From positions 32,001-96,000 of the IMG/VR virus record IMGVR_UViG_3300021093_003900: 64,000 bases of DNA; one strand, 5' to 3'. A program made the position numbers and the translations under genes. The stretch comes from a virus. The stretch's first letter is position 1. Each line of letters begins with the position of its first letter. This document shows, one piece after another, positions 3,139 through 62,727 of the stretch. The notes under the pieces were generated by a model. It was not told the DNA's origin and searched no databases. It saw nothing but the letters and a program-made list of their open reading frames with translations.

Positions 3139-3233
3139 GTGCTATAAATAATAGAAAAGTTAAAAAAAATTTGATTTGTATCAATAATTGTGTTATTTTT
3201 TTGTAAAAATAAACGAGTATAGAATATGGATAA

Positions 3234-3683
3234 ATGAAAAAAGGCAAAACCTGTAAATTGAACGGATTTACAAGATTGAAAAGTACGTATGGAACAGTAG
3301 ATTCTAAAACATTTAAATCTTTGTATTTGAACATACAAAGTTGGGTGACACCTCAAAAAAGTGTCGAAAATTGGTCAAGAGTGGTAAACATTCTAAATAG
3401 AGAAATAAAGGAGACCATAAATGAAATTTTAGATCTTACATTATTACAACCAAAATTTATTTTAGACCTAGACCTAAGAACCAGTGGATTAGTTGTTGGG
3501 AAAAAAAGTTTTATGAATTTGGAAATAACATTCTTTGTGGCGAAAAATGTAGAATTCAAATCAACATTACTAAAAACACATCTTCAAAATCTTACATCAT
3601 TTATAAATTCACACAATTTTACAAAAAACACTTACTTTAAATTTGAAAAAACAAAGAAACTGAAAACAATTGATATTATCTAA
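3234..3683 (+). CDS. Hypothetical protein
   Basis: 149-aa ORF divergent from bS21. Confidence 0.7.
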   Translation: MKKGKTCKLNGFTRLKSTYGTVDSKTFKSLYLNIQSWVTPQKSVENWSRVVNILNREIKETINEILDLTLLQPKFILDLDLRTSGLVVGKKSFMNLEITFFVAKNVEFKSTLLKTHLQNLTSFINSHNFTKNTYFKFEKTKKLKTIDII

Positions 3684-31901: not shown

Positions 31902-33153
31902 AATATGGATCTGTAAAATTCTGCTCTATCTTTTGTAACTTTTTCTAAACTATATTTTTCGTGGACAGTTTCATATAATCGTTCACCCAAGTCTTTGGCG
32001 AAGTTTGGATTTTGAATAAGTTTTTTAACATACTTAAACCAATCACCGTGATTTCTGTTTTCATCTACTAATAATGCGTTTCCGTTGGTAAATATACCAT
32101 TATCTAAGGCATGAGTCAAATCGATAGTATAAGGTCCGAGATTAGATGCAATCAAAGCTTTCTTGTAAAAACCAGCCTCAATTACTTTCAATTGAGATTT
32201 CATTCTATTGAAAATGTGATTCTTGATAGGTGCCAAAGATACATCAAATTTTGTATAATTTTTTGCGTATTGTTGAATCGGTCTTGTCCAAATTCTCTTA
32301 TAGAATTCGTGAGAAAATTGACTATCATCCTCCTCTTTAAATCTCATTAATAAATTATGATATTCAGGTGATATTAATTTATAATTGTCTGTGAATACTT
32401 GTTCATATTTGTACCACACAGTTTCATGTGGTTTAATATCTCGTTTTTTCTGTTCTCCAGTTTGTTGATTAATTTCAGTCACAGTACCTCGTATATCAAA
32501 CCCACAAAGATAAACTTCAGTTGTGCCTTTGTACTCGTGCATACGAGAAAAAATTGATTCAAGTATAGTAATGTCGTGTAAGTGAGATGAACCACCTAAC
32601 CATCCAAATCTTAACTTATCTGAAGGTTCTGTAACCGCATTAAATTGAGCCTCAGTTTTACTAATTGCATTAGGAAATACAACAGCGTTTTTATTATACT
32701 TTGTTATTTCCTGAGCAAAAATACTCGTTGTTGTCATCACATAATCACTAACTTTTAGATTTTCTATTATCTTTTCGTGAATTTTATTTGACACAACTAA
32801 GTCGTGAATAGGATGATCTTTTGTCGGTAACCAGTAGTCATCCAAGTCCATAACTGTCTTTACACCTAATTGACCAACCATTTTAATCAAATTGGCTGAG
32901 GTATCATAGTTTTGACCAATAGTTCTGTGGAAATGAACTATATCATATTTTCGCCAAAAATTGATATCGTTTATTTGGGGTTCATATTCAATATCAATAT
33001 GAAAGTCATTAGGATACATATTTTGTAAAAAAATATGTGGATCGATTGATCTGAATTTACCTTTAGTTAACCAACCCCCGTACGGTCAGATGGGACTACA
33101 AGAATCCTGATCTTTTCGCGACCATTTGGGGGTGGAATTGAATTTTGTTGCAT
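31898..33153 (-). CDS. GT-B glycosyltransferase with an interrupted reading frame (33153-33070 joined to 33058-31898)
   Basis: Main ORF has DLDDYW, GWLGGSSHLHD, FNRMKSQLKVIEAG but lacks the first beta-strand; the upstream segment MQQNSIPPPNGREKIRILVVPSDRTGVG stops at TAA, and the main frame reads KFRSIDPHIFLQNMYP from 11 nt further on. Confidence 0.75.
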
Positions 33154-45886: not shown

Positions 45887-48643
45887 ATGATCACAACAGA
45901 AGAAATCAAAAGTTTTTTAGAGGGTAACGATCCAGAAGAGCATATAGTCGCACTTGAGTTCGATTATGCAAGTGAAGATATCTTTAAAATCAAGGAAATC
46001 CCTAGTAAAGGTAAACAAATTGTCAGGGATACTTTTATTCCGTTTTGTTGGGTTGGTGATTTACGTAAATTAAACTTTTATGGAGGATCAAAAGCTCAAC
46101 AGAAAGAGGCGATGTCCAAACATAAAATTCTTATTGAAAAACTAGAAACTCACGACAATGAAAGATTAACCCAAGGTCTTACATTCTTGGTAAAATCCTT
46201 AAAAGGATATAGAAATCTTATTCAGTTTTTTCGTGATGGTGGTATAGATCCTTGGGGTGATGCGGCAAAAGAACAATTTCTATTATTACCACCAGTTGAA
46301 CAATATTTGATTCAAAAAGAAAAAAGATTATTCAAAGGATATGAAGAATACAACGATATCACTCGATTTGTATTTGACTTAGAGACGACCGCACTTGATC
46401 CAAAAGATGGTCGTATTTTTATGATTGGTATGAAGACAAATAAAGGTTTTCATCAAGTTATTGAATGTCTCACAGAAGAACAAGAAAAACACGGATTGAT
46501 TGAGTTTTTCAGGACAATACACAAACTTAATCCAAGTATCATTGGTGGTTACAATAGCTTTAACTTTGACTGGCAATGGATCATTGAAAGATCCAAAGCT
46601 CTTGGTTTGGATATGAAGAAAATTTGTATAACCCTCAATCCAGAAAGACATTTCTCACAAAAAGAACAATTGCTCAAACTTGGTAATGAGGTTGAGAAAT
46701 TCAATCAGATTGGAATGTGGGGATATAATGTAATTGATATTCTTCATGCTGTGAGAAGAGCTCAATCAATCAATTCAAATATCAAAAGTGCTGGTCTTAA
46801 GTATATCACACAATACTTGGAACTAGAAAGTCCAAATCGTATTTACATAGATCATCAAAACATCGGTAAGATGTATGAAAAAAAAGAGGAGTATTGGTTA
46901 AATATTAACAATGGAAAATATAAAAAAGCTGATATTCCTGAGTTTGCAAACTTAGATCAAAGATTTCCATCAGTTTATGAAAAAGTTACTGGAGATAAAA
47001 TTGTTGAGATGTATCTTGACGATGACTTGGATGAAACTTTACGTGTTGATGAAGAGTTCAATCAAGGTTCTTTTCTTCTAGCATCTCTTGTACCAACGAC
47101 TTATGAAAGAGTTTCTACAATGGGAACCGCGACGTTATGGAAAATGATTATGCTCGCTTGGTCATACAAACACAACTTAGCAATTCCGAAAAAACAAGAA
47201 AAAAAGGATTTTGTGGGTGGATTATCACGTCTTATTAAAGTGGGTTATTCTACCAATGTTCTTAAACTCGACTTTAGTTCACTTTATCCTTCTATTCAAC
47301 TTGTACACGAAGTTTTTCCTGATTGTGATGTGACTGGGGTGCTCAGAGGATTTTTGAAGTTTTTCCGTGATTCTCGTATATTATACAAACAACTTGCGGA
47401 AGAATTACACGAGACAGATCCAAAAAAATCAAAATCATACGATAGAAAACAATTACCTATCAAAATCTTTATCAATAGTATGTTTGGTGCCCTGTCAGCA
47501 CCTCAAGTCTTTGCTTGGGGTGATATGTATATGGGAGAACAAATTACCTGTACTGGTAGACAATATCTTCGTCAAATGACAAAATTCTTTATGGCACGTG
47601 GTTATGAACCACTTGTGATGGATACGGACGGTATTAACTTCTCAGCACCAAACGGGGTTGAAGATCGAGTTTATATTGGTCGAGGTAACAATTGGAAAGT
47701 TAAAAAGGGTAAAGAGTACAAAGGCACTGCGGCTGATATTGCTGAGTATAATGATATTTTTATGCGTGGTGAGATGGCGTTAGATAACGATGGTGTGTGG
47801 CCAAGTTGTATAAACATCGCCAGAAAAAACTACGCACTTCTCACAGAAAAAGGAAAAATCAAGTTGGTTGGAAACACTATTAAGTCAAAAAAATTACCGG
47901 GTTATATCGAGGAGTTTCTTGATAAGGGAATTAAATTATTACTTCAAGGTAAGGGAAAAGAATTTGTCGAGTTTTATTATGAATATCTGACAAAGATCTA
48001 CAATATGGAAATTCCTTTAGTCAAAGTAGCTCAAAGAGGTAAAATAAAACAAAGTATCTCTGACTATGAAAAAAGATGTAAACAAACAACTAAGGCGGGT
48101 AATTTGATGGCAAGACAAGCACATATGGAACTTGTAATTCAAAAAGGGATGAGTGTTAATTTGGGTGATGTTATTTATTACGTCAACGATGGAACTAAAA
48201 TCTCTCAAGGTGATGTGTCCAAAAAGGGTGATACTATTACATTAAATTGTTATTTGGTAAGTCAAAGCGACATTGATAATAATCCGAATTTAACAGGTGT
48301 GTATAATGTTCCTCGAGCAATCTCAGTATTCAATAAACGTATTGAACCACTTTTGGTTGTGTTCAAACCAGAAGTTAGGGATATTTTGTTAGTCACCAAT
48401 CCAGAACAAAGAGAGTATTTCACAACTCTACAATGTCAACTTGTAAATGGACAACCTTTTAATGAAACCGATCAAGATAATTTACAAAGAGATGTCTTGG
48501 AAATTACCGAACAAGAGTTGGAGTATTGGAAAAAGAGGGGTCTTGATCCGAACTACATTTACGATCAAGCTGCAGATGGGTGGGAAAAAGTGGTAACTTA
48601 CCAAAGTTTAACACCATCAGAAGAAAGTATGTACCAATTGTGA
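45887..48643 (+). CDS. Family B DNA polymerase
   Basis: ExoI FDLETT, ExoII YNSFNFD, LDFSSLYPSI, KIFINSMFG, MDTDG, KNYA. Confidence 0.93.
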   Translation: MITTEEIKSFLEGNDPEEHIVALEFDYASEDIFKIKEIPSKGKQIVRDTFIPFCWVGDLRKLNFYGGSKAQQKEAMSKHKILIEKLETHDNERLTQGLTFLVKSLKGYRNLIQFFRDGGIDPWGDAAKEQFLLLPPVEQYLIQKEKRLFKGYEEYNDITRFVFDLETTALDPKDGRIFMIGMKTNKGFHQVIECLTEEQEKHGLIEFFRTIHKLNPSIIGGYNSFNFDWQWIIERSKALGLDMKKICITLNPERHFSQKEQLLKLGNEVEKFNQIGMWGYNVIDILHAVRRAQSINSNIKSAGLKYITQYLELESPNRIYIDHQNIGKMYEKKEEYWLNINNGKYKKADIPEFANLDQRFPSVYEKVTGDKIVEMYLDDDLDETLRVDEEFNQGSFLLASLVPTTYERVSTMGTATLWKMIMLAWSYKHNLAIPKKQEKKDFVGGLSRLIKVGYSTNVLKLDFSSLYPSIQLVHEVFPDCDVTGVLRGFLKFFRDSRILYKQLAEELHETDPKKSKSYDRKQLPIKIFINSMFGALSAPQVFAWGDMYMGEQITCTGRQYLRQMTKFFMARGYEPLVMDTDGINFSAPNGVEDRVYIGRGNNWKVKKGKEYKGTAADIAEYNDIFMRGEMALDNDGVWPSCINIARKNYALLTEKGKIKLVGNTIKSKKLPGYIEEFLDKGIKLLLQGKGKEFVEFYYEYLTKIYNMEIPLVKVAQRGKIKQSISDYEKRCKQTTKAGNLMARQAHMELVIQKGMSVNLGDVIYYVNDGTKISQGDVSKKGDTITLNCYLVSQSDIDNNPNLTGVYNVPRAISVFNKRIEPLLVVFKPEVRDILLVTNPEQREYFTTLQCQLVNGQPFNETDQDNLQRDVLEITEQELEYWKKRGLDPNYIYDQAADGWEKVVTYQSLTPSEESMYQL

Positions 48644-55059: not shown

Positions 55060-58000
55060 ATGGCAACTACCAATAAAATATTTGTTTCCCCTGGTGTTTA
55101 TACATCTGAGAGGGATTTGAGTTTTGTAGCACAGAGTGTTGGTGTTACAACTTTGGGTTTGGTTGGTGAAACTCTTACTGGCCCAGCCTTTGAACCTATT
55201 TTCATAACTAACTACGACGAATTTCAAGCTTTCTTTGGAGGTACTATCCCCGAAAAATTTGTGAATACTCAAATTCCAAAATATGAATTAGCTTATATTG
55301 CAAAATCATATTTACAACAATCCAATCAGTTATTTGTAACTCGTGTATTGGGTCTTTCAGGGTATGATGCTGGACCGGGTTGGTCATTGTCTATTCAAGC
55401 AAATGTCGATGGAACAACAGTTGGATTAACAAGTACAGTATCAACATATACAATTAGTTTGTCCGCAACGACAGGGGGTACAGTTACGTTAACACCAGTT
55501 GGTTCTACATTGGTCGGAACTAATTTAAACAATCCTTTTACACTATTGAATGGAAACCAATCATCCTTTAATAGTCAATTGACTAATCAAATCACGGCTA
55601 TTGTAAATGCATCAGGAACTACAAGTGGTACTTCAATATATTATTTTGGTACTGTATCTGATGCTGAGTATAGTGCTCTCGGTGCTTACACTGCACAGAC
55701 AAACGTTTTTGGTGTTTCAGGATTAACAGATTCGGAAGCCGAATACACATCACCAAACAACGATGCTTGGTATTATTCTAATTTCGATGAAAGTTCCAAT
55801 GGAAATTATACAGGTTATTCATTTATGAGTATTGTAAGTTCTTTGACTGATACAGGATCAGGTAATTATACTGGTACAATTTCAGGAACCGTGTTTAATT
55901 ATTCAGGTGTTTCATACTTGGATTATAACGATGTTGTGGTAGCAACACTTCGTTCGAGAGGAATTTCGAACTATGGTTCAGGTGGAACTGGCCCAAGATA
56001 TCAAGTGACAGGTTTAACGAGTGTTACACTTAATACAACAGGAACTTACTCTGCAGTAACAGAAAACCCTTTTGCTAGATTTGCAATTTCTGGTATAACT
56101 GATGGCGCTAACTCACCAGAAAATTTCCAATTTGTGGTATCGTTGTCACAAACAGACCAAAACTACTTACCTGCTGTGTTGGGTAGAACTAATTTTAGTA
56201 GAAGTAGAACTGAGGTTCCGTTGTTTGTTGAGGAGATTTATCCGACATTACTTACTTATGGGTACAACAAAGGTTATATTAGAGGTATCAAAACCGACGT
56301 TATTGCTACTCCTGGTTTAAGATACACACCAACTACTGGTTCTATTGCAAACTATTTAGAAAGATATAGAGCCGCTGAATCTCCTTGGGTTGTGTCCCAA
56401 CTTCGTGGTAGTACAGTTGAAAGATTATTCAAAGTGTTAACGATTTCCGATGGTAATGCTGCAAATGCTCAAATTAAAATTTCAATTCAAAACATCTCGT
56501 TCAATAATTTAAATTTTGACTTAGGTGTTCGTGATTTCTTTGACACAGATACAAATCCTGTGTATCTGGAAAAATTCACAAATTGTAATATGGATCCAGC
56601 ATCGAATAATTACATCGGTGTTAAAGTGGGTACTTCTGACGGTGAATATACACTTAACTCTAAATTTATTATGTTGGAGTTAGATGCTGATGCACCAATT
56701 AGTTCTCTTCCATGTGGTTTCGAGGGTTATGTGATGAGAGAGTATCCCAATGGATTGCCCCCATTCCCGATCTACAAAACCGCTTATTATTTCCCGGGTG
56801 AAGTTATTTACAACCCCCCATTTGGAACAACTACTGGCCCAGTGTCTTCTCGTGGTATGTCCAATGCGGTACAAAGTTCTGGTGACAAGGTAAGAACTAC
56901 GTTCTTGGGAATCTCAAGTCAAATTGGTTATGATGTTGACTTTTACCAGTACAAAGGAGCACAATACCCTGTAAGTATCTGTGACTCAGAAGCCGCAGAA
57001 CCTTGGGATTACATCACTCAAGGTTTCCATATGGATTCAGGTGCGACAGTTGTACAAATCGCTGTTGGGCCAACTTCTGGTACTCCTGCATTCCAATGTG
57101 GTGATGCATCTTTCCAATCTGATCCTGAAACTTCCGCAAACCCATACTACCAAATCCAAGCTCGTAAGTTTACTTTTTTGGTACAAAAAGGTTTTGACGG
57201 TTGGGACATTTATCGTGAGTATCGTACAAACGGTGACTCATTCATACTAGGTGGTGCTGGGTATCAAAGAGGTGCTTGCGCTTCAACAAGATATCCGAAC
57301 GCAACTGGGTGGGGAGCATTCAAACCTATTAGTGTTTCTAACTTTACGGATTATGCCAATACGGATTACTACGCTTATTTACTTGGTATTAGTACTTTCA
57401 ATAATCCCGAGTCAACAAATATCAATGTGTTTGCAACCCCAGGTATTGATTACGTGAACAATTCAAATCTCGTTGAAGATGCAATTTCAATGATTACCTA
57501 CCAGAGGGCTGATTCAATTTATATTGCAACAACACCTGACTGTAATGTGTTCTTACCGACTATTAATGATAATTTTATTTATCCTACAGAAGCGGTAGAT
57601 AACTTGGATAACACAGGTATTGACTCAAACTACACAGCAACTTATTACCCTTGGATCTTGGTAAGAGATACTGTGAATAACACACAGATTTACATCCCAC
57701 CAACAAATGAAGTTTGCAGAAACTTGGCTCTAACGGATAATATTTCATTTCCTTGGTTTGCTACCGCTGGTTACACTCGTGGTTTGGTCAACGCTATCAA
57801 AGCTCGTAAGAAACTTACACAAGAAGATAGAGACACTTTGTATCAGGGTCGTATTAATCCTATCGCTACGTTTTCTGATGTTGGAACTGTAATTTGGGGT
57901 AACAAAACTCTTCAAATTGCTGATACGGCGTTGAATAGAATTAATGTGAGAAGATTGTTACTACAAGCTAGAAAACTTATTTCTGCAGTTGCCGTCAGAT

Positions 58001-58245
58001 TATTGTTTGAACAAAACGATGCTAAGGTACGTCAGGACTTCTTAGACAGCGTCAATCCTATTTTGGATGCCATCAGAAGAGACAGAGGTCTTTATGACTT
58101 CAGAGTGACTGTAAGCAGTTCTCCAGAGGATTTAGACAGAAACACACTCACTGGTAAAATCTATCTGAAACCTACTAAAGCGTTAGAATTTATCGATATA
58201 GAGTTCTTGATTACACCAACTGGAGCATCTTTTGAGAATATCTAA
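55060..58245 (+). CDS. Tail sheath protein (gp18-like)
   Basis: FVSPGVYTSERD, PWFATAGYTRG, RDTLYQGRINPI, IWGNKT, RINVRRL, LFEQND, KPTKALEFI. Confidence 0.95.
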   Translation: MATTNKIFVSPGVYTSERDLSFVAQSVGVTTLGLVGETLTGPAFEPIFITNYDEFQAFFGGTIPEKFVNTQIPKYELAYIAKSYLQQSNQLFVTRVLGLSGYDAGPGWSLSIQANVDGTTVGLTSTVSTYTISLSATTGGTVTLTPVGSTLVGTNLNNPFTLLNGNQSSFNSQLTNQITAIVNASGTTSGTSIYYFGTVSDAEYSALGAYTAQTNVFGVSGLTDSEAEYTSPNNDAWYYSNFDESSNGNYTGYSFMSIVSSLTDTGSGNYTGTISGTVFNYSGVSYLDYNDVVVATLRSRGISNYGSGGTGPRYQVTGLTSVTLNTTGTYSAVTENPFARFAISGITDGANSPENFQFVVSLSQTDQNYLPAVLGRTNFSRSRTEVPLFVEEIYPTLLTYGYNKGYIRGIKTDVIATPGLRYTPTTGSIANYLERYRAAESPWVVSQLRGSTVERLFKVLTISDGNAANAQIKISIQNISFNNLNFDLGVRDFFDTDTNPVYLEKFTNCNMDPASNNYIGVKVGTSDGEYTLNSKFIMLELDADAPISSLPCGFEGYVMREYPNGLPPFPIYKTAYYFPGEVIYNPPFGTTTGPVSSRGMSNAVQSSGDKVRTTFLGISSQIGYDVDFYQYKGAQYPVSICDSEAAEPWDYITQGFHMDSGATVVQIAVGPTSGTPAFQCGDASFQSDPETSANPYYQIQARKFTFLVQKGFDGWDIYREYRTNGDSFILGGAGYQRGACASTRYPNATGWGAFKPISVSNFTDYANTDYYAYLLGISTFNNPESTNINVFATPGIDYVNNSNLVEDAISMITYQRADSIYIATTPDCNVFLPTINDNFIYPTEAVDNLDNTGIDSNYTATYYPWILVRDTVNNTQIYIPPTNEVCRNLALTDNISFPWFATAGYTRGLVNAIKARKKLTQEDRDTLYQGRINPIATFSDVGTVIWGNKTLQIADTALNRINVRRLLLQARKLISAVAVRLLFEQNDAKVRQDFLDSVNPILDAIRRDRGLYDFRVTVSSSPEDLDRNTLTGKIYLKPTKALEFIDIEFLITPTGASFENI

Positions 58246-58251
58246 TTATAA

Positions 58252-59082
58252 ATGTTAACAGTTAAAAAAAAACGTAATATCATTTCGGAGGGTTTCGATC
58301 AGTTCGGAACCCCCGATTTGAAGTATTATGCCTTTGACTGGGATGATAATATTCTTCAAATGCCAACAAAGATAATGTTGATGGATGATGAGGGTAATGA
58401 AGTTGGTATGTCAACAGAGGACTTTGCAAAATTTCGATCTAAAATTGGAAAGAAAAACTTTGAATATGAAGGTCATAAAATCGTTGGGTATGCAGAAGAT
58501 CCTTTTAGATTTTTTAGGACATTGGGTGATAAAAAATTTTTGTTTGATACCATGAATGCTAAACCAGGACCAGCTTGGTCGGACTTCATTGAAGCTATCA
58601 ATAACGGATCTATTTTTTCTATCATTACAGCTAGAGGGCATAACCCGAGAACAATTAGAGAAGCTATTTATAATATGATCATACAAAATCATATGGGTAT
58701 CAACAGAGATTTACTGGTTAAAAACCTGAAGAAGTATAGAAAGATTACCAAGGAAGGCCCAACAAATACAAAAAATCTTATAAATTACTATTTAGATTTA
58801 AACAAATACTACCCAGTTACCTTTGGCGATGATGGTAGTGCTTCAAATCCAGAAGAACTCAAAGTAAAAGCACTGAGAGAGTTCATCAACTATGTCAAAC
58901 AACATGCTAAAAAATTAAATAAGAAACTCTTTATGAAAGATAAAATAAGTAATAGATTTTTACCAACAATTGGATTTTCCGATGATGATATAAAGAACTT
59001 AGAAAGAATTAAACAAGAATTTATTAAAGAACCTTTATTAAAAACTTATAACACTTCATCAGGAACAAAAACTAAATTCTAA
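58252..59082 (+). CDS. HAD-superfamily phosphatase-like protein
   Basis: FDWDDNI, IITARGH, K, GFSDDD motifs. Confidence 0.7.
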   Translation: MLTVKKKRNIISEGFDQFGTPDLKYYAFDWDDNILQMPTKIMLMDDEGNEVGMSTEDFAKFRSKIGKKNFEYEGHKIVGYAEDPFRFFRTLGDKKFLFDTMNAKPGPAWSDFIEAINNGSIFSIITARGHNPRTIREAIYNMIIQNHMGINRDLLVKNLKKYRKITKEGPTNTKNLINYYLDLNKYYPVTFGDDGSASNPEELKVKALREFINYVKQHAKKLNKKLFMKDKISNRFLPTIGFSDDDIKNLERIKQEFIKEPLLKTYNTSSGTKTKF

Positions 59083-59240: not shown

Positions 59241-59729
59241 ATGGCTGATTTACTAATGAAAATGCCCGTTCCGTATGAACCGAAAAGGGTAAACCGATTT
59301 ATACTTAGATTTGATTCAACGTTGGGTATTAACGAATGGTATGTTGAATCTACTGATAGACCTTCAATTGATATAGCATCTGTTGCAATTCCATTTTTGA
59401 ATACAGAAACGTATGTGGCTGGAAGATTTAAATGGAATGCTATGAACGTAACATTCAGAGATCCTATTGGGCCTTCGGCAACACAAGCACTTATGGAGTG
59501 GGTTCGTCTGCATGCGGAATCAGTTACTGGTCGTATGGGATATGCTGCTGGATATAAAAAGAATGTTGATTTAGAAATGTTAGATCCAACAGGTGTAGTT
59601 GTTGAAAAATGGATTTTGGATTCATGTATGATAACTAAATCCGCATGGAACCAAGCACAGTATAGTCAAGACGGACTTGCAACACTCGCAGTGACACTTC
59701 AACCAGATCGTTGTATATTGGTCTACTAA
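59241..59729 (+). CDS. Tail tube protein (gp19-like)
   Basis: EPKRVNRF, YVAGRFKW, YKKNVDLEMLDPTGVVVEKW; follows the sheath gene. Confidence 0.88.
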   Translation: MADLLMKMPVPYEPKRVNRFILRFDSTLGINEWYVESTDRPSIDIASVAIPFLNTETYVAGRFKWNAMNVTFRDPIGPSATQALMEWVRLHAESVTGRMGYAAGYKKNVDLEMLDPTGVVVEKWILDSCMITKSAWNQAQYSQDGLATLAVTLQPDRCILVY

Positions 59730-59832: not shown

Positions 59833-60582
59833 ATGGACGAAAATTTGATGAAATACGGTCAAGAGAATTTTTCTCTACCGCACGATGTTGTAAAGCTACC
59901 TAGTGGAGGTAAGTTTTACCCAAATAAAAAAAAATCAGTAAAAGTAGGTTATTTGACCGCTAACGACGAGAATTTGTTAATGGCTACAAATACTGACGAT
60001 CTGATCATTAATCTTCTAAGATCCAAAGTATACGAACCAGATCTGAGACCAGATGAAATGATTAACGGTGATTTGGAAGCCATTCTTATTTTTTTGAGAA
60101 ATACATCATTTGGACACGAATACAATATTAGTGTAAATGATCCAACCACAGGTAAACCTTTCAAAGCTGTGATTGGGTTAGACGAACTCGAGTTTAGAAA
60201 ACCAAACGTAGAACCAGATGATAACGGAACTTGGACTGTTACACTACCAAAGTCACAAACATCTGTTACTATACGTCCATTATTGTATAAAGAAATTACA
60301 GATATTAATCGTCAAGCCGATTCTTATCCACAGGGACGTGTCGCTCCAAAAGTCACTTGGAGATTACAAAAACAAATTGTTTCAATTAATGGTGATAGTC
60401 AGAATCAAACAATTGCTAAGTTCATCGACACACTTCCAATTATGGATTCCAAGTTTATCAGGAATTTCTTGGATGAGAATGAACCAAAGATTGATCTAAA
60501 AAGAATAGTTACAGCCCCGTCAGGAAGTAAGGTCGATGTAGAAGTCACCTTTGGGGCGGAATTTTTTCGTGTATTCTTCTGA
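59833..60582 (+). CDS. Tail assembly chaperone / gp26-like baseplate hub assembly protein
   Basis: VKLPSGGKFY, LTANDENLL, GDLEAILIFLR, VTLPKS, C-terminal EFFR; lies between tube and tape measure. Confidence 0.75.
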   Translation: MDENLMKYGQENFSLPHDVVKLPSGGKFYPNKKKSVKVGYLTANDENLLMATNTDDLIINLLRSKVYEPDLRPDEMINGDLEAILIFLRNTSFGHEYNISVNDPTTGKPFKAVIGLDELEFRKPNVEPDDNGTWTVTLPKSQTSVTIRPLLYKEITDINRQADSYPQGRVAPKVTWRLQKQIVSINGDSQNQTIAKFIDTLPIMDSKFIRNFLDENEPKIDLKRIVTAPSGSKVDVEVTFGAEFFRVFF

Positions 60583-60709
60583 TTATAGAGCGTACCTAGT
60601 TGACGAGTTTTATATTCTGAATCAAAGATGTAATGTATCTTATTCAGACTATTTGAAAATGCCAATTTTTTGGAGAAAAAGATTATTGGATAAGATATCC
60701 ACAACATAA
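60566..60709 (+). CDS. +1-frame extension (gpT-like) of the tail chaperone
   Basis: FVYSSDYRAYLVDEFYILNQRCNVSYSDYLKMPIFWRKRLLDKISTT*; overlaps the chaperone stop; no ATG in the first 31 codons. Confidence 0.65.
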   Translation, partial: FVYSSDYRAYLVDEFYILNQRCNVSYSDYLKMPIFWRKRLLDKISTT

Positions 60710-60783
60710 TCTACCAATGAACTTAATAAATATCAAATTACTTATTTAATTTTGTAAATTTAAATATTTATAAAAAAAGATTG

Positions 60784-62727
60784 ATGCAGTCACAACCACC
60801 ACCACCACCCGGACAAGGGAACAGTTTTTTTGATGAACTTCAAAAAAACGTAAAAGACACTTATAATACCATAAATGAAAAACTTAAAGATATTAGGCGT
60901 CAAAACGAACTCCTAGATAAGAGTATTCTGGAAAAAAACGAAGCACTAGCAAAAACTTTTGGTCGTACTCAAGTTGCCGTAAAAGGTCTCCGATTATCGT
61001 TAGTTGAATCATTACCAACCATAACTACTTTGGGGGGTGGTCTTGAAGATGCTTTTAATATAATACATAAGACTTCCGATGAACTTGGAACTAATAGAAT
61101 ATTATTAGGTGAAACCACAAAAGACCTCTACGCTGTACAGAAAGCTTTCGGCTTAGAAGGCTATTATATGGGTACATACTTAAAAAATTTCCATGATGCG
61201 GGTATAGATGTTGGACTTATTAGGGATAGAATGGAAGAAACTTTGAATATTGCAAGATTAGTTGGGGCTAACTCGCACGCAGTGTTTACAAACGTAGCAA
61301 ATAGTTTAGATCAAATTAATAAGTATGGGTTTAAAGATGGTGTTGAAGGGTTATCACGTATGGCCGCCAAAGCAGTATCGATGAGGTTCGATATGTCACA
61401 GATATTTAGTTTCGCGGAAAAAGTTTTTAGTCCAGAAGGAGCAATTGAAGCCGTAGCTACTTTCCAAAGACTAGGTGTTGCCGTTGGTGATTTAGCAGAC
61501 CCTTTTAGACTTATGTACCTTGCATCAGAAGATGTAGAAGGACTTACAGATCAAGTTGTAAAAATGACAAGTAAGTTTTCTTATTTTGATGAAAAAAGCA
61601 AAGAATTCAAAATTTTTCCATACGCAAAAAGAGATATAAGGGATTTAGGAGCACAAATGGGCGCAACTTACGAAGAAATGGTAAAAATGTCTTTCGCACA
61701 AACTAAATTAAATAAATTATCTAGTGAATTTAAATTCAATGCTAATGTAAAAGAAACCGATAAACAATTAATTGCGAATCTTGCACAATACAGTAAAGAA
61801 AAAGGTGATTTTGTTGTTAAGGTCAATCGAGAAGAAAAATTGGTTACTCAACTTAGTGAAGAAGATATTGAAGAATTAAGAGGTAGACCAGAAACAGTGG
61901 AAGACGTTGCCAGAGCCCAACTTGAAGAAAGTGAATTAATCAAAAAGGCAGCAGAGGGTATTTTTGACCTACTGCGAGGAATAACTGTAGGTGCCAAACC
62001 AACACAAGATTTGGCTGAACTTGTAAGAGCCACAAAAGAAGGTGTTAATAAAGCGGCTACTAAAGCGAGCGGAAATGTAAGAGGTGGTATAAAAAAAGTC
62101 GACGAGTTTTACCTTGCCATCTCAAAAAATCTCAAAGCGATAATTGATGACTACAATAAGGGTACTATTAATTTTACAGAGTACATAGACAAAATGCAAA
62201 AAGCTTCAGAATCATACACTGGTAGTCTTGAAGACTTGTCAAAAAGAATTATAGAATATGATTTCCTAAAAAGTATTGATCCAAAAAACAACCCACTTAT
62301 TAGCAAGGATAATTTAATTGCAGGTGCTGTAGATTCAGTGATAACTGAACTGCTAAACGGGGCAAAAAAACTTAATGAGGTTTTCAAAGCCATTAATTTT
62401 AATAGCACCCCTAGTCAACAAACATCGTATCAATCTACACCTTCTATGAATCAGACAACCCCCCCTTTACAAGCTTATGCAGTTATATTGCCGACACCAC
62501 CAAAACAATTACCAACTGAATTTACATCAAATAATCAAAATGTTTCGTTTTCACCAATCAATGGAAACATAGAGTTGAAAGTTGTTACAGAAGACGGAAC
62601 AAAAGTAGATTTAACAAATCAAATTGTGAGTAGTGCTGAGTTCCAAAGAAGAGTCGTATCCCTTATTTCTGAAAGAATGCAAAACCAAAATTACAACAAC
62701 TTACCAAATTCAACAGCAATTTCGTAG
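60784..62727 (+). CDS. Tape-measure-like protein
   Basis: Long helical ORF after the tube and chaperone genes. Confidence 0.65.
   Translation: MQSQPPPPPGQGNSFFDELQKNVKDTYNTINEKLKDIRRQNELLDKSILEKNEALAKTFGRTQVAVKGLRLSLVESLPTITTLGGGLEDAFNIIHKTSDELGTNRILLGETTKDLYAVQKAFGLEGYYMGTYLKNFHDAGIDVGLIRDRMEETLNIARLVGANSHAVFTNVANSLDQINKYGFKDGVEGLSRMAAKAVSMRFDMSQIFSFAEKVFSPEGAIEAVATFQRLGVAVGDLADPFRLMYLASEDVEGLTDQVVKMTSKFSYFDEKSKEFKIFPYAKRDIRDLGAQMGATYEEMVKMSFAQTKLNKLSSEFKFNANVKETDKQLIANLAQYSKEKGDFVVKVNREEKLVTQLSEEDIEELRGRPETVEDVARAQLEESELIKKAAEGIFDLLRGITVGAKPTQDLAELVRATKEGVNKAATKASGNVRGGIKKVDEFYLAISKNLKAIIDDYNKGTINFTEYIDKMQKASESYTGSLEDLSKRIIEYDFLKSIDPKNNPLISKDNLIAGAVDSVITELLNGAKKLNEVFKAINFNSTPSQQTSYQSTPSMNQTTPPLQAYAVILPTPPKQLPTEFTSNNQNVSFSPINGNIELKVVTEDGTKVDLTNQIVSSAEFQRRVVSLISERMQNQNYNNLPNSTAIS

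Follow-up and report, generated by a model that had tools for sequence, protein, structure and literature searches.

Does a tail gene of an uncultured virus encode a single protein or, through a change of reading frame close to its 3' end, two? The question is raised by a pair of overlapping open reading frames (ORFs) in a 64,000-nucleotide (nt) stretch of DNA, here called the window, that covers positions 32,001 to 96,000 of the IMG/VR virus record IMGVR_UViG_3300021093_003900. ORF1 encodes a protein of the T4 gp26/gp51 family and contains, a few codons before its stop, a run of six T followed by C, while ORF2 lies in the +1 frame and lacks a conserved start codon of its own. The evidence assembled here indicates, with high probability, a conserved programmed frameshift into the +1 frame, which would give a short protein of 249 residues and a long protein of 291 residues as a pair like the G and GT products of phage lambda. 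The features on which this reading depends are listed by their positions in the window.

59833-60582, + strand: ORF1, the short form, a 249-residue T4 gp26/gp51-family protein (PF12322, phrog_150)
59833-60709, + strand: the predicted trans-frame long form (P0001), 291 residues, with residues 1-245 in frame 0 and 46 in frame +1
60539-60541, + strand: TAG that closes the +1 frame 5' of the shift site, as read from the sequence
60562-60570, + strand: the candidate shift cassette UUU UUU CGU, with TTTTTTCGN invariant in 14 close loci
60569-60709, + strand: the +1-frame extension, 46 codons and TAA, with the motif SSDY...DEFY...SY.DYL.MP..R and a predicted three-helix module
60514-60557, + strand: an RNA hairpin with an outer helix (60514-60519 with 60552-60557) and an inner helix (60529-60533 with 60547-60551), a candidate stimulator of +1 shifting

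Anatomy of the overlap

In frame with the ATG at 59833, ORF1 ends GAA (60559-60561) TTT (60562-60564) TTT (60565-60567) CGT (60568-60570) GTA TTC TTC TGA (60580-60582). This is the ending given by an earlier reading of the sequence (the original prediction), which was equally correct that the +1 frame is closed by TAG at 60539 (60539-60541) and then open to the TAA that ends at 60709 (60707-60709). The open segment encodes ...NFF VYSSDYRAYLVDEFYILNQRCNVSYSDYLKMPIFWRKRLLDKISTT; it is present as predicted, but it comprises 46 codons past the run and not 47 residues. The -1 frame closes at 60599, which does not fit a -1 shift on an X_XXY_YYZ heptamer, the direction that is customary among lambda-type chaperone genes but no strict hallmark of them.

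In the proposed mechanism, most ribosomes would read ORF1 to the UGA at 60580-60582 and produce the 249-residue short form, and a fraction would pass into the +1 frame on UUU UUU CGU (60562-60570). Most likely, the P-site tRNA-Phe on UUU 60565-60567 would re-pair with UUC 60566-60568 while the infrequent CGU waits in the A site, and the shifted ribosomes would continue through GUG UAU UCU to the UAA at 60707-60709, yielding the 291-residue form with its 46-residue, predicted helical C-terminal module. The site belongs to the UUU_Ynn type, which is prone to +1 shifting in bacteria (PMC5009743). The junction peptide predicted for the +1 slip is VDVEVTFGAEFFVYSSDYR; a slip of -2 would instead give ...EFFFVYSSDYR, as ...AEFFFVYSSDYR, and without any shift only VDVEVTFGAEFFR plus a free ORF2 peptide would be expected.

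Conservation of the site and of the +1 frame

Relatives were compared at three distances. The close set consists of 15 IMG/VR loci with 97-55% amino acid identity, 14 of which reach the site, and all 14 keep TTTTTTCGN, TTCTTCTGA and the +1 ORF even as wobble positions around the run drift (GAA, GAG or GAC before it; CGT, CGA or CGG after it). The distant set consists of 160 further loci from two profile-guided scans, in which a +1 ORF was counted when it extended at least 35 codons past the ORF1 stop. Such an ORF is present in 155 of the 160 loci and a -1 ORF in none, the remaining five being contig ends or cases with a misplaced frame. Lastly, seven database phages (five cultured and two uncultured) share 24-32% identity with ORF1 or with its relative P0135, and a homologous +1 ORF occurs in every one of them. 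Their sites read TTT TTT TGG in Mel-JY01, TTT CTT TGG in immuto, TTT TTT CAC in SP-15, TTT TTT AGT in LIS04, TTC TTT CGT in both GXN1 and HSE3, and TTT CTA in LR756508. In the database records of the seven, the +1 ORF is cut short, left out or entered as a hypothetical gene in its own right, and those of Mel-JY01, immuto, SP-15, LIS04, GXN1 and HSE3 mark no frameshift. The conservation of TTT-CGN and of the +1 ORF thus supports the frameshift originally proposed, and the frame relation between the two ORFs, whose variation among homologs would have counted against it, is +1 in the 155 distant loci, the 14 close loci and the seven phages, with LR756511 (-1) as the sole exception.

Among non-redundant loci, the site falls into two large classes, TTT TTT TGG CCT (75 loci) and TTT TTT CGN CCN (42 loci, the class of the window), with the rest mixed (NTT TTC CTC, TTT CTC and others). 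Phe-Phe is written TTTTTT in 125 of 126 non-redundant loci, and in 50 of the 51 loci in which an arginine codon follows the run. This arginine is encoded by CGN in all 51 (CGT 25, CGC 17, CGG 7, CGA 2) and by AGR in none, in a window where AGA accounts for 61% of arginine codons and AGA plus AGG for 72%. Per 1000 codons of the window, CGT is used 5.6 times and AGA 21.7 times, and CGG, found at the site in several relatives, 0.4 times. The third base of the CGN codon drifts and its first base is fixed, as the need for UUU_C (tRNA-Phe re-pairing with UUC) predicts, so the avoidance of AGR would preserve the C required for the UUU-to-UUC slip. The base 3' of the run is C or U in site classes A and B and in six of the seven database phages, with UUU_C in the window. 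In six loci, a TAG in the +1 frame stands just 2 nt ahead of the run, and taken with the closest ORF1 stop it limits the change of frame to between -2 and +18 nt of the run.

The 41 nt at 60549-60589 form the most conserved segment of the locus, and lake, reservoir and marine contigs from divergent relatives match only there, with flanks that are unlike. Contigs from four sequencing runs (three DNA libraries and one RNA library) contain no insertions or deletions in the run. A relative occurs in only one metatranscriptome, in the form of assembled contigs.

At the eight other in-frame TTT_CGN sites of the window, the +1 frame stays open for only 1-39 codons (no more than 15 at seven of the sites), and no gene ends close to any of them. 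Because these frames close so soon, and because the +1 ORF is retained so widely in the distant set, the ORF exceeds what chance would leave open. A second in-frame TTT TTT CGT occurs at 46226-46234, inside a 918-aa gene (45887-48643), where a +1 stop follows after four codons and any slip would simply abort.

The extension as coding sequence

The extension is evolving as coding sequence in the +1 frame, judging from its pattern of substitution. Codon-position variability in that frame follows the order 3>1>2 in all three groups of relatives, and the encoded peptides align across site classes through S-S/T-D/E-Y, D/E-E-I/F-Y/F and Y-x-D-x-L/M-x-M-P-x-x-E/x-R. In the close loci, substitutions 5' of the run are mild in frame 0 (A/V) and radical in the +1 frame (R/W/L), and 3' of the run the SSD of the +1 frame is invariant. 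The original prediction had regarded the SY-D-LKMP-R pattern as typical of gpT-like tails; no evidence for that was found, and the pattern is instead a signature of this family's own extension.

The body and the extension also occur as a single protein. P0252 (304 aa, six ENA contigs) carries both in one frame and aligns to the trans-frame product across residues 10-289 (E 2e-38), and its DNA at the junction reads ...TTA TTA AAA ATG GAT GCA AAC TAT AGG..., without a T run. No relatives of P0252 were found in viral contigs, and a search for longer proteins holding the extension returned one unrelated match and no fusion besides P0252, which is weak evidence. Comparison of the extension profile with PDB sequences gave chance-level matches only, and a tblastn search of phage records with the class A extension gave no match. 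P0252 (contig L187, 3-899) also contains two CxxC pairs that form a zinc ribbon, as in T4 gp26/gp51 and Firmicutes phages; the cysteines of this ribbon are lost in the lineage of the window (APSGSK).

An RNA hairpin upstream of the run

A hairpin precedes the T run. Its outer helix pairs GCCCCG (60514-60519) with UGGGGC (60552-60557) and ends 4 nt 5' of the run, and the minimum free energy (MFE) of the hairpin is -16.4 kcal/mol, with 74% of the ensemble and a z score of -2.0. Across the 42 CGN-class sequences compared, pairing in the outer helix reaches 97%, which beats all 500 shuffles and every slid register, and it is part of the MFE structure in 39 of the 42. Covariation is evident at pair 13-56 (AU 23, GU 13, GC 5) and at pair 18-51 (AU 16, GC 13, GU 11, and never A-C). 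The stem is made from rare synonymous codons: GCC (10%), CCG (9%), GGG (8%) and GCG (13%). A single shared register for the inner helix was tried and fails across subgroups, with 72% of cells paired; its register shifts between subgroups, and conservation is therefore claimed for the outer helix only.

In vitro, with 70S ribosomes, hairpins that refold upstream, beside the E site, make +1 shifts more frequent and -1 shifts less so (PMC6321510). By analogy, the stem probably refolds behind the ribosome and so favours forward slippage. The 3' arm of the stem places GGGG 5-8 nt 5' of the shift codon; in prfB-like shifts, a Shine-Dalgarno-like sequence sits about 3 nt 5' of that codon, in hosts that use such pairing. 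Stimulation of this kind was set aside, as Shine-Dalgarno use is absent from the genes of the phage (5 loose matches in 57).

A small hairpin is also present in relatives of the TTT TTT TGG CCT class (L027-L106, e.g., L030, L033 and L055), about 40 nt 5' of a T7 run. Its arms vary in a compensatory manner (GGACCC/GGGTCC, GGAACC/GGTTCC, GAGGTC/GACCTC), with a GGAGG-like loop over PGGGS codons.

Points against a +1 frameshift and alternative explanations

Several observations weigh against the frameshift as described. The exception, LR756511, has its version of the module in the -1 frame; a T_TTT_TTC heptamer occupies the Phe-Phe site and a TAATG stop/start overlap follows 23 codons later, so the module may be produced there on its own. 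A slip of -2 suits some distant relatives (GUU UUC CUC) better than one of +1. CGU is only moderately rare in the window. In-frame TTT_CGN is not avoided there (nine occurrences where about 8 are expected), so that the bare motif cannot be very efficient and its context should matter. Additionally, the likeness in fold between the trans-frame protein and known tail chaperones is weak. LR756511 is a 595-kb uncultured phage whose homologous module lies in the region 3163-3435.

The alternative that fares best, though it is unlikely, is that the same recoding occurs by a slip of -2, in which tRNA-Phe on UUU 60565-60567 would re-pair with UUU 60563-60565 and translation would resume at UUC 60566-60568, adding one Phe to the product. 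The original prediction had proposed either direction, and both fit the window: the U6 run permits perfect re-pairing at -2, and TTTTTT is kept in 125 of 126 loci even though a +1 slip requires just UUUC. The relatives with GUU UUC C add to the case for -2. Against it, the sites of GXN1 and HSE3 (TTC TTT CGT) and of LR756508 (TTT CTA) would put tRNA-Phe on CUU or ACU, where a +1 slip from UUU to UUC still works, and a +1 slip accounts for the strict C or U that follows the run, which -2 does not require. The +1 direction is therefore favoured.

It is very unlikely that ORF2 is a separate small gene, translated from a start of its own (TTG 60551 or GTG 60569) or by re-initiation. Both candidate start codons are present in the window, and the TAATG overlap of LR756511, the ATG that P0252 has in frame where its module begins, behind an A-rich leader, and the two-gene form reported for phage 0305phi8-36 (PMC2147016) would all suit such a gene. 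However, neither start is conserved, with TTG 60551 replaced by TCG and GTG 60569 by GAG, GGG or GGC in relatives, a result that the frameshift proposal had been exposed to and withstood. Ahead of the conserved residues, ATG is absent in 113 of 126 non-redundant loci and any of ATG, GTG or TTG in 29 of 126, and in six loci the +1 frame is stopped by TAG 2 nt before the T run. The genes of this phage have A-rich leaders, whereas the sequence 5' of ORF2 is rich in GC and folded, and a separate gene would leave the invariant TTTTTT and the use of CGN without AGR unexplained.

Slippage of RNA polymerase on the T6 run, with one U fewer or two more in a minority of mRNAs that would encode the long form in one frame, is the least credible alternative: a homopolymer of 6-7 T is conserved, but six T are short for efficient transcriptional slippage, the arrangement persists in relatives whose run is broken (TTCTTTCGT or TTTCTA), this explanation assigns no role to the conserved C/CGN 3' of the run, and the contig of a relative from an RNA library is without an insertion or deletion at the site (a weak point, given that contigs hide rare variants).

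Family and predicted structure of the protein

ORF1 matches the PF12322 family (T4_baseplate) with 44.5 bits against a cut-off of 24.5, over residues 21-245 and profile positions 8-218 of 219, and it matches phrog_150 ("baseplate hub") with an E value of 4e-14. The original prediction called the protein a gpG-style chaperone; the pair arrangement stands, but the protein is a member of the T4 gp26/gp51 family and not a recognisable gpG. By its family name, ORF1 would be a hub or tail assembly chaperone. A total of 3620 homologues were found. In a sample of 150 representatives (50% clustering, 1601 hits), full-length proteins stop 3-6 residues past Phe-Phe (FFWPDL, FFRPFF, LFLNIS), and an end 3-6 codons past this site is shared by thousands of homologues. 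T4 gp26 itself ends ...KEFFELL, and the Phe-Phe at the shift point is thus a conserved C-terminal motif of the PF12322 family. A search of the whole 115-kb record, itself incomplete, found only one PF12322 gene (41.9 bits).

The trans-frame protein scores no higher than ORF1 alone against PHROGs and Pfam, libraries that hold no model for the extension, and a PDB search found no solved structure similar by sequence. An AlphaFold2 model of the trans-frame protein has a mean predicted local distance difference test score (pLDDT) of 91.3 and a predicted template modelling score of 0.82, and places residues 249-290 of the extension in three helices (block-mean pLDDT 82-93). A structure comparison (VIA-align, 48,161 representative chains) gave middling similarities, the best three being 3fgx (Z 6.5), an uncharacterised protein of Bacillus stearothermophilus; YqbN (3klu, Z 5.9), the homologue in the skin element of XkdN, the tail chaperone of PBSX; and 2ob9 (Z 5.8), the tail assembly chaperone of HK97. 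A Foldseek search of the model against the PDB returned nothing at E <= 0.001, with 2ob9 at E 0.88. The model comparisons hint that the ORF1 body is built of chaperone-like domains.

Comparison with known recoding systems

The closest parallel in arrangement is the G/GT pair of lambda, an instance of the conserved tail assembly chaperone frameshift (Levin 1993 and Xu 2004, as cited in PMC5009743). In both systems, the overlapping ORFs lie between the tail tube and tape measure genes (the latter putative here). Having no separate start, the downstream ORF is entered in lambda, and would be entered here, when ribosomes change frame a few codons ahead of the stop of the upstream ORF; the outcome is one short product and one lengthened at its C terminus. 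In the window, the second ORF has no conserved start, and the frame relation and slippery site are conserved. The two differ in direction, which is -1 in lambda and +1 (or -2) in the window, and in the protein, which is a 249-aa PF12322 member here and about 140 aa in gpG-like chaperones. No sequence similarity of the window protein to gpG or gpT was found, and it resembles the HK97 chaperone only weakly in fold.

In T4, gp26 (208 aa) and gp51 (249 aa) are hub assembly chaperones (Leiman et al. 2010, PMC3004832), and their non-virion role as chaperones or catalysts of hub and tail assembly is known only from genetics (PMC3004832). T4 has been named as the exception to G-T frameshifting (review PMC5009743), the single long-tailed phage that lacks it. 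PF12322 covers residues 1-206 of 208 in gp26 and 1-201 of 249 in gp51, comparable to 21-245 of ORF1, and the gp51 tail past the domain is 48 aa long, next to 46 aa in the extension of the window. T4 thus has one short and one long PF12322 paralogue. Unlike the pair in the window, these forms come from two divergently transcribed genes (26 and 51), away from the tube gene and without a frameshift. Homology of the gp51 tail to the extension is only suggested: profile comparison places the extension core on gp51 219-252 (E 0.003, probability 10%, a weak match), an HMMER search of six-frame T4 ORFs with a hidden Markov model of the extension did not pick out gp51, and the whole-fusion profile matches the gp51 profile weakly (E 0.0085) on a segment of the body. 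In gp51 homologues a further Pfam family of more recent date, PF28602, is also present; the library used on the window lacks it.

Sites of the +1 UUU_Y type include E. coli UUU_Ynn, Yersinia YopN-TyeA and influenza PA-X UCC_UUU_CGU (PMC5009743). The core UUU_CGU of PA-X is identical to that of the window, as would be the step of tRNA-Phe from UUU to UUC before an infrequent CGU. The window site differs from these in belonging to a phage of a bacterial host; it has a run of U6 preceded by a conserved hairpin, and UCC is absent from its E site. Tail or chaperone genes of other phages supply precedents for forward shifting: 350 annotated cases in SEA-PHAGES genomes (PMC10885494), the haloarchaeal myovirus HSTV-2 (PMC5009743) and Listeria phage PSA (as mentioned in PMC9024508). 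These share the +1 direction in tail morphogenesis genes with the present case and differ from it in protein family and shift motif. No published description of a forward shift in PF12322 (T4 gp26/gp51) genes was found in a literature search that went without most subscription journals.

Genomic setting

The window is AT-rich (32.5% G+C) and is part of a 115-kb record, found in lake-water metagenomes, that is estimated to be 38% complete. The order of genes on the + strand is tail sheath gene, a 276-aa ORF, tail tube gene, ORF1 and a 647-aa ORF, with these neighbours annotated:

55060-58245, + strand: tail sheath ORF, 1061 aa, with sheath domains only at residues 768-1059
59241-59729, + strand: tail tube gene (phrog_4542 tail tube, E 6e-25)
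60784-62727, + strand: putative tape measure gene, 647 aa (position as in immuto, HSE3 and LIS04; language-model look-alikes)

The ORF1/ORF2 pair lies between the tube gene and the putative tape measure gene, and the same order is present in the database relatives. Among relatives, the tube gene was located at 89 loci; it is directly 5' of ORF1 there, and its product nearly always has 162 aa. The position of a tape measure gene directly 3' of the pair is as originally predicted, but its identity rests on that position and on language-model look-alikes (PF10145 and TMP_3 clusters, scores 0.91-0.92), with no significant match of the product in Pfam, in PHROGs or by BLASTP against the tape measure protein of immuto. 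A TATTTAT motif is located at 60765-60771, just 5' of this gene. The sheath ORF has approximately 760 N-terminal residues that are rich in Thr, Ser and Gly and without an assigned family, and the 276-aa ORF (58252-59082), inserted between the sheath and tube genes, has no Pfam or PHROG family match.

Gene leaders in the window are A-rich and nearly devoid of Shine-Dalgarno sequences, which points to a host with Shine-Dalgarno-independent initiation. No tRNA genes were found in the 64-kb window.

Implications

The known G/GT principle is very likely present here in a new form, in the gp26/gp51 family. By analogy with lambda G/GT and T4 gp26/gp51, the body and the extra module would act jointly in the assembly of the tape measure, tube and hub, and not in the virion. 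A pair of the lambda type would be made in a set ratio, the body being the predicted partner of the tape measure and the extension that of the tube protein. More broadly, it is an evenly balanced proposition that the PF12322 proteins annotated as "baseplate hub subunit" serve as the tail assembly chaperones in myoviruses related to T4 and in many giant ones. They would represent a G/GT-type system of ancient origin, its long form arising from a +1 shift (as in the window), from a -1 shift (in other lineages), from fusion (P0252) or from a second gene (T4 gp51). If true, T4 would be no exception to the G-T rule, and the refolding upstream hairpin would be a natural +1 stimulator in hosts without Shine-Dalgarno pairing. 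If the frameshift in the window is real, as is very likely, the U6-CGN run and its upstream stem would constitute a natural, strongly conserved +1 cassette for the study of forward shifts in bacteria without Shine-Dalgarno pairing, and the annotation of SP-15, LIS04, immuto, Mel-JY01, HSE3 and GXN1, in which the second ORF is now hypothetical or missed, would be corrected. Such recoding would be used by T4's own gp26/gp51 family in environmental myoviruses that form a large, abundant group, and it would give a clue to the functions of gp26 and gp51, a matter of uncertainty for decades.

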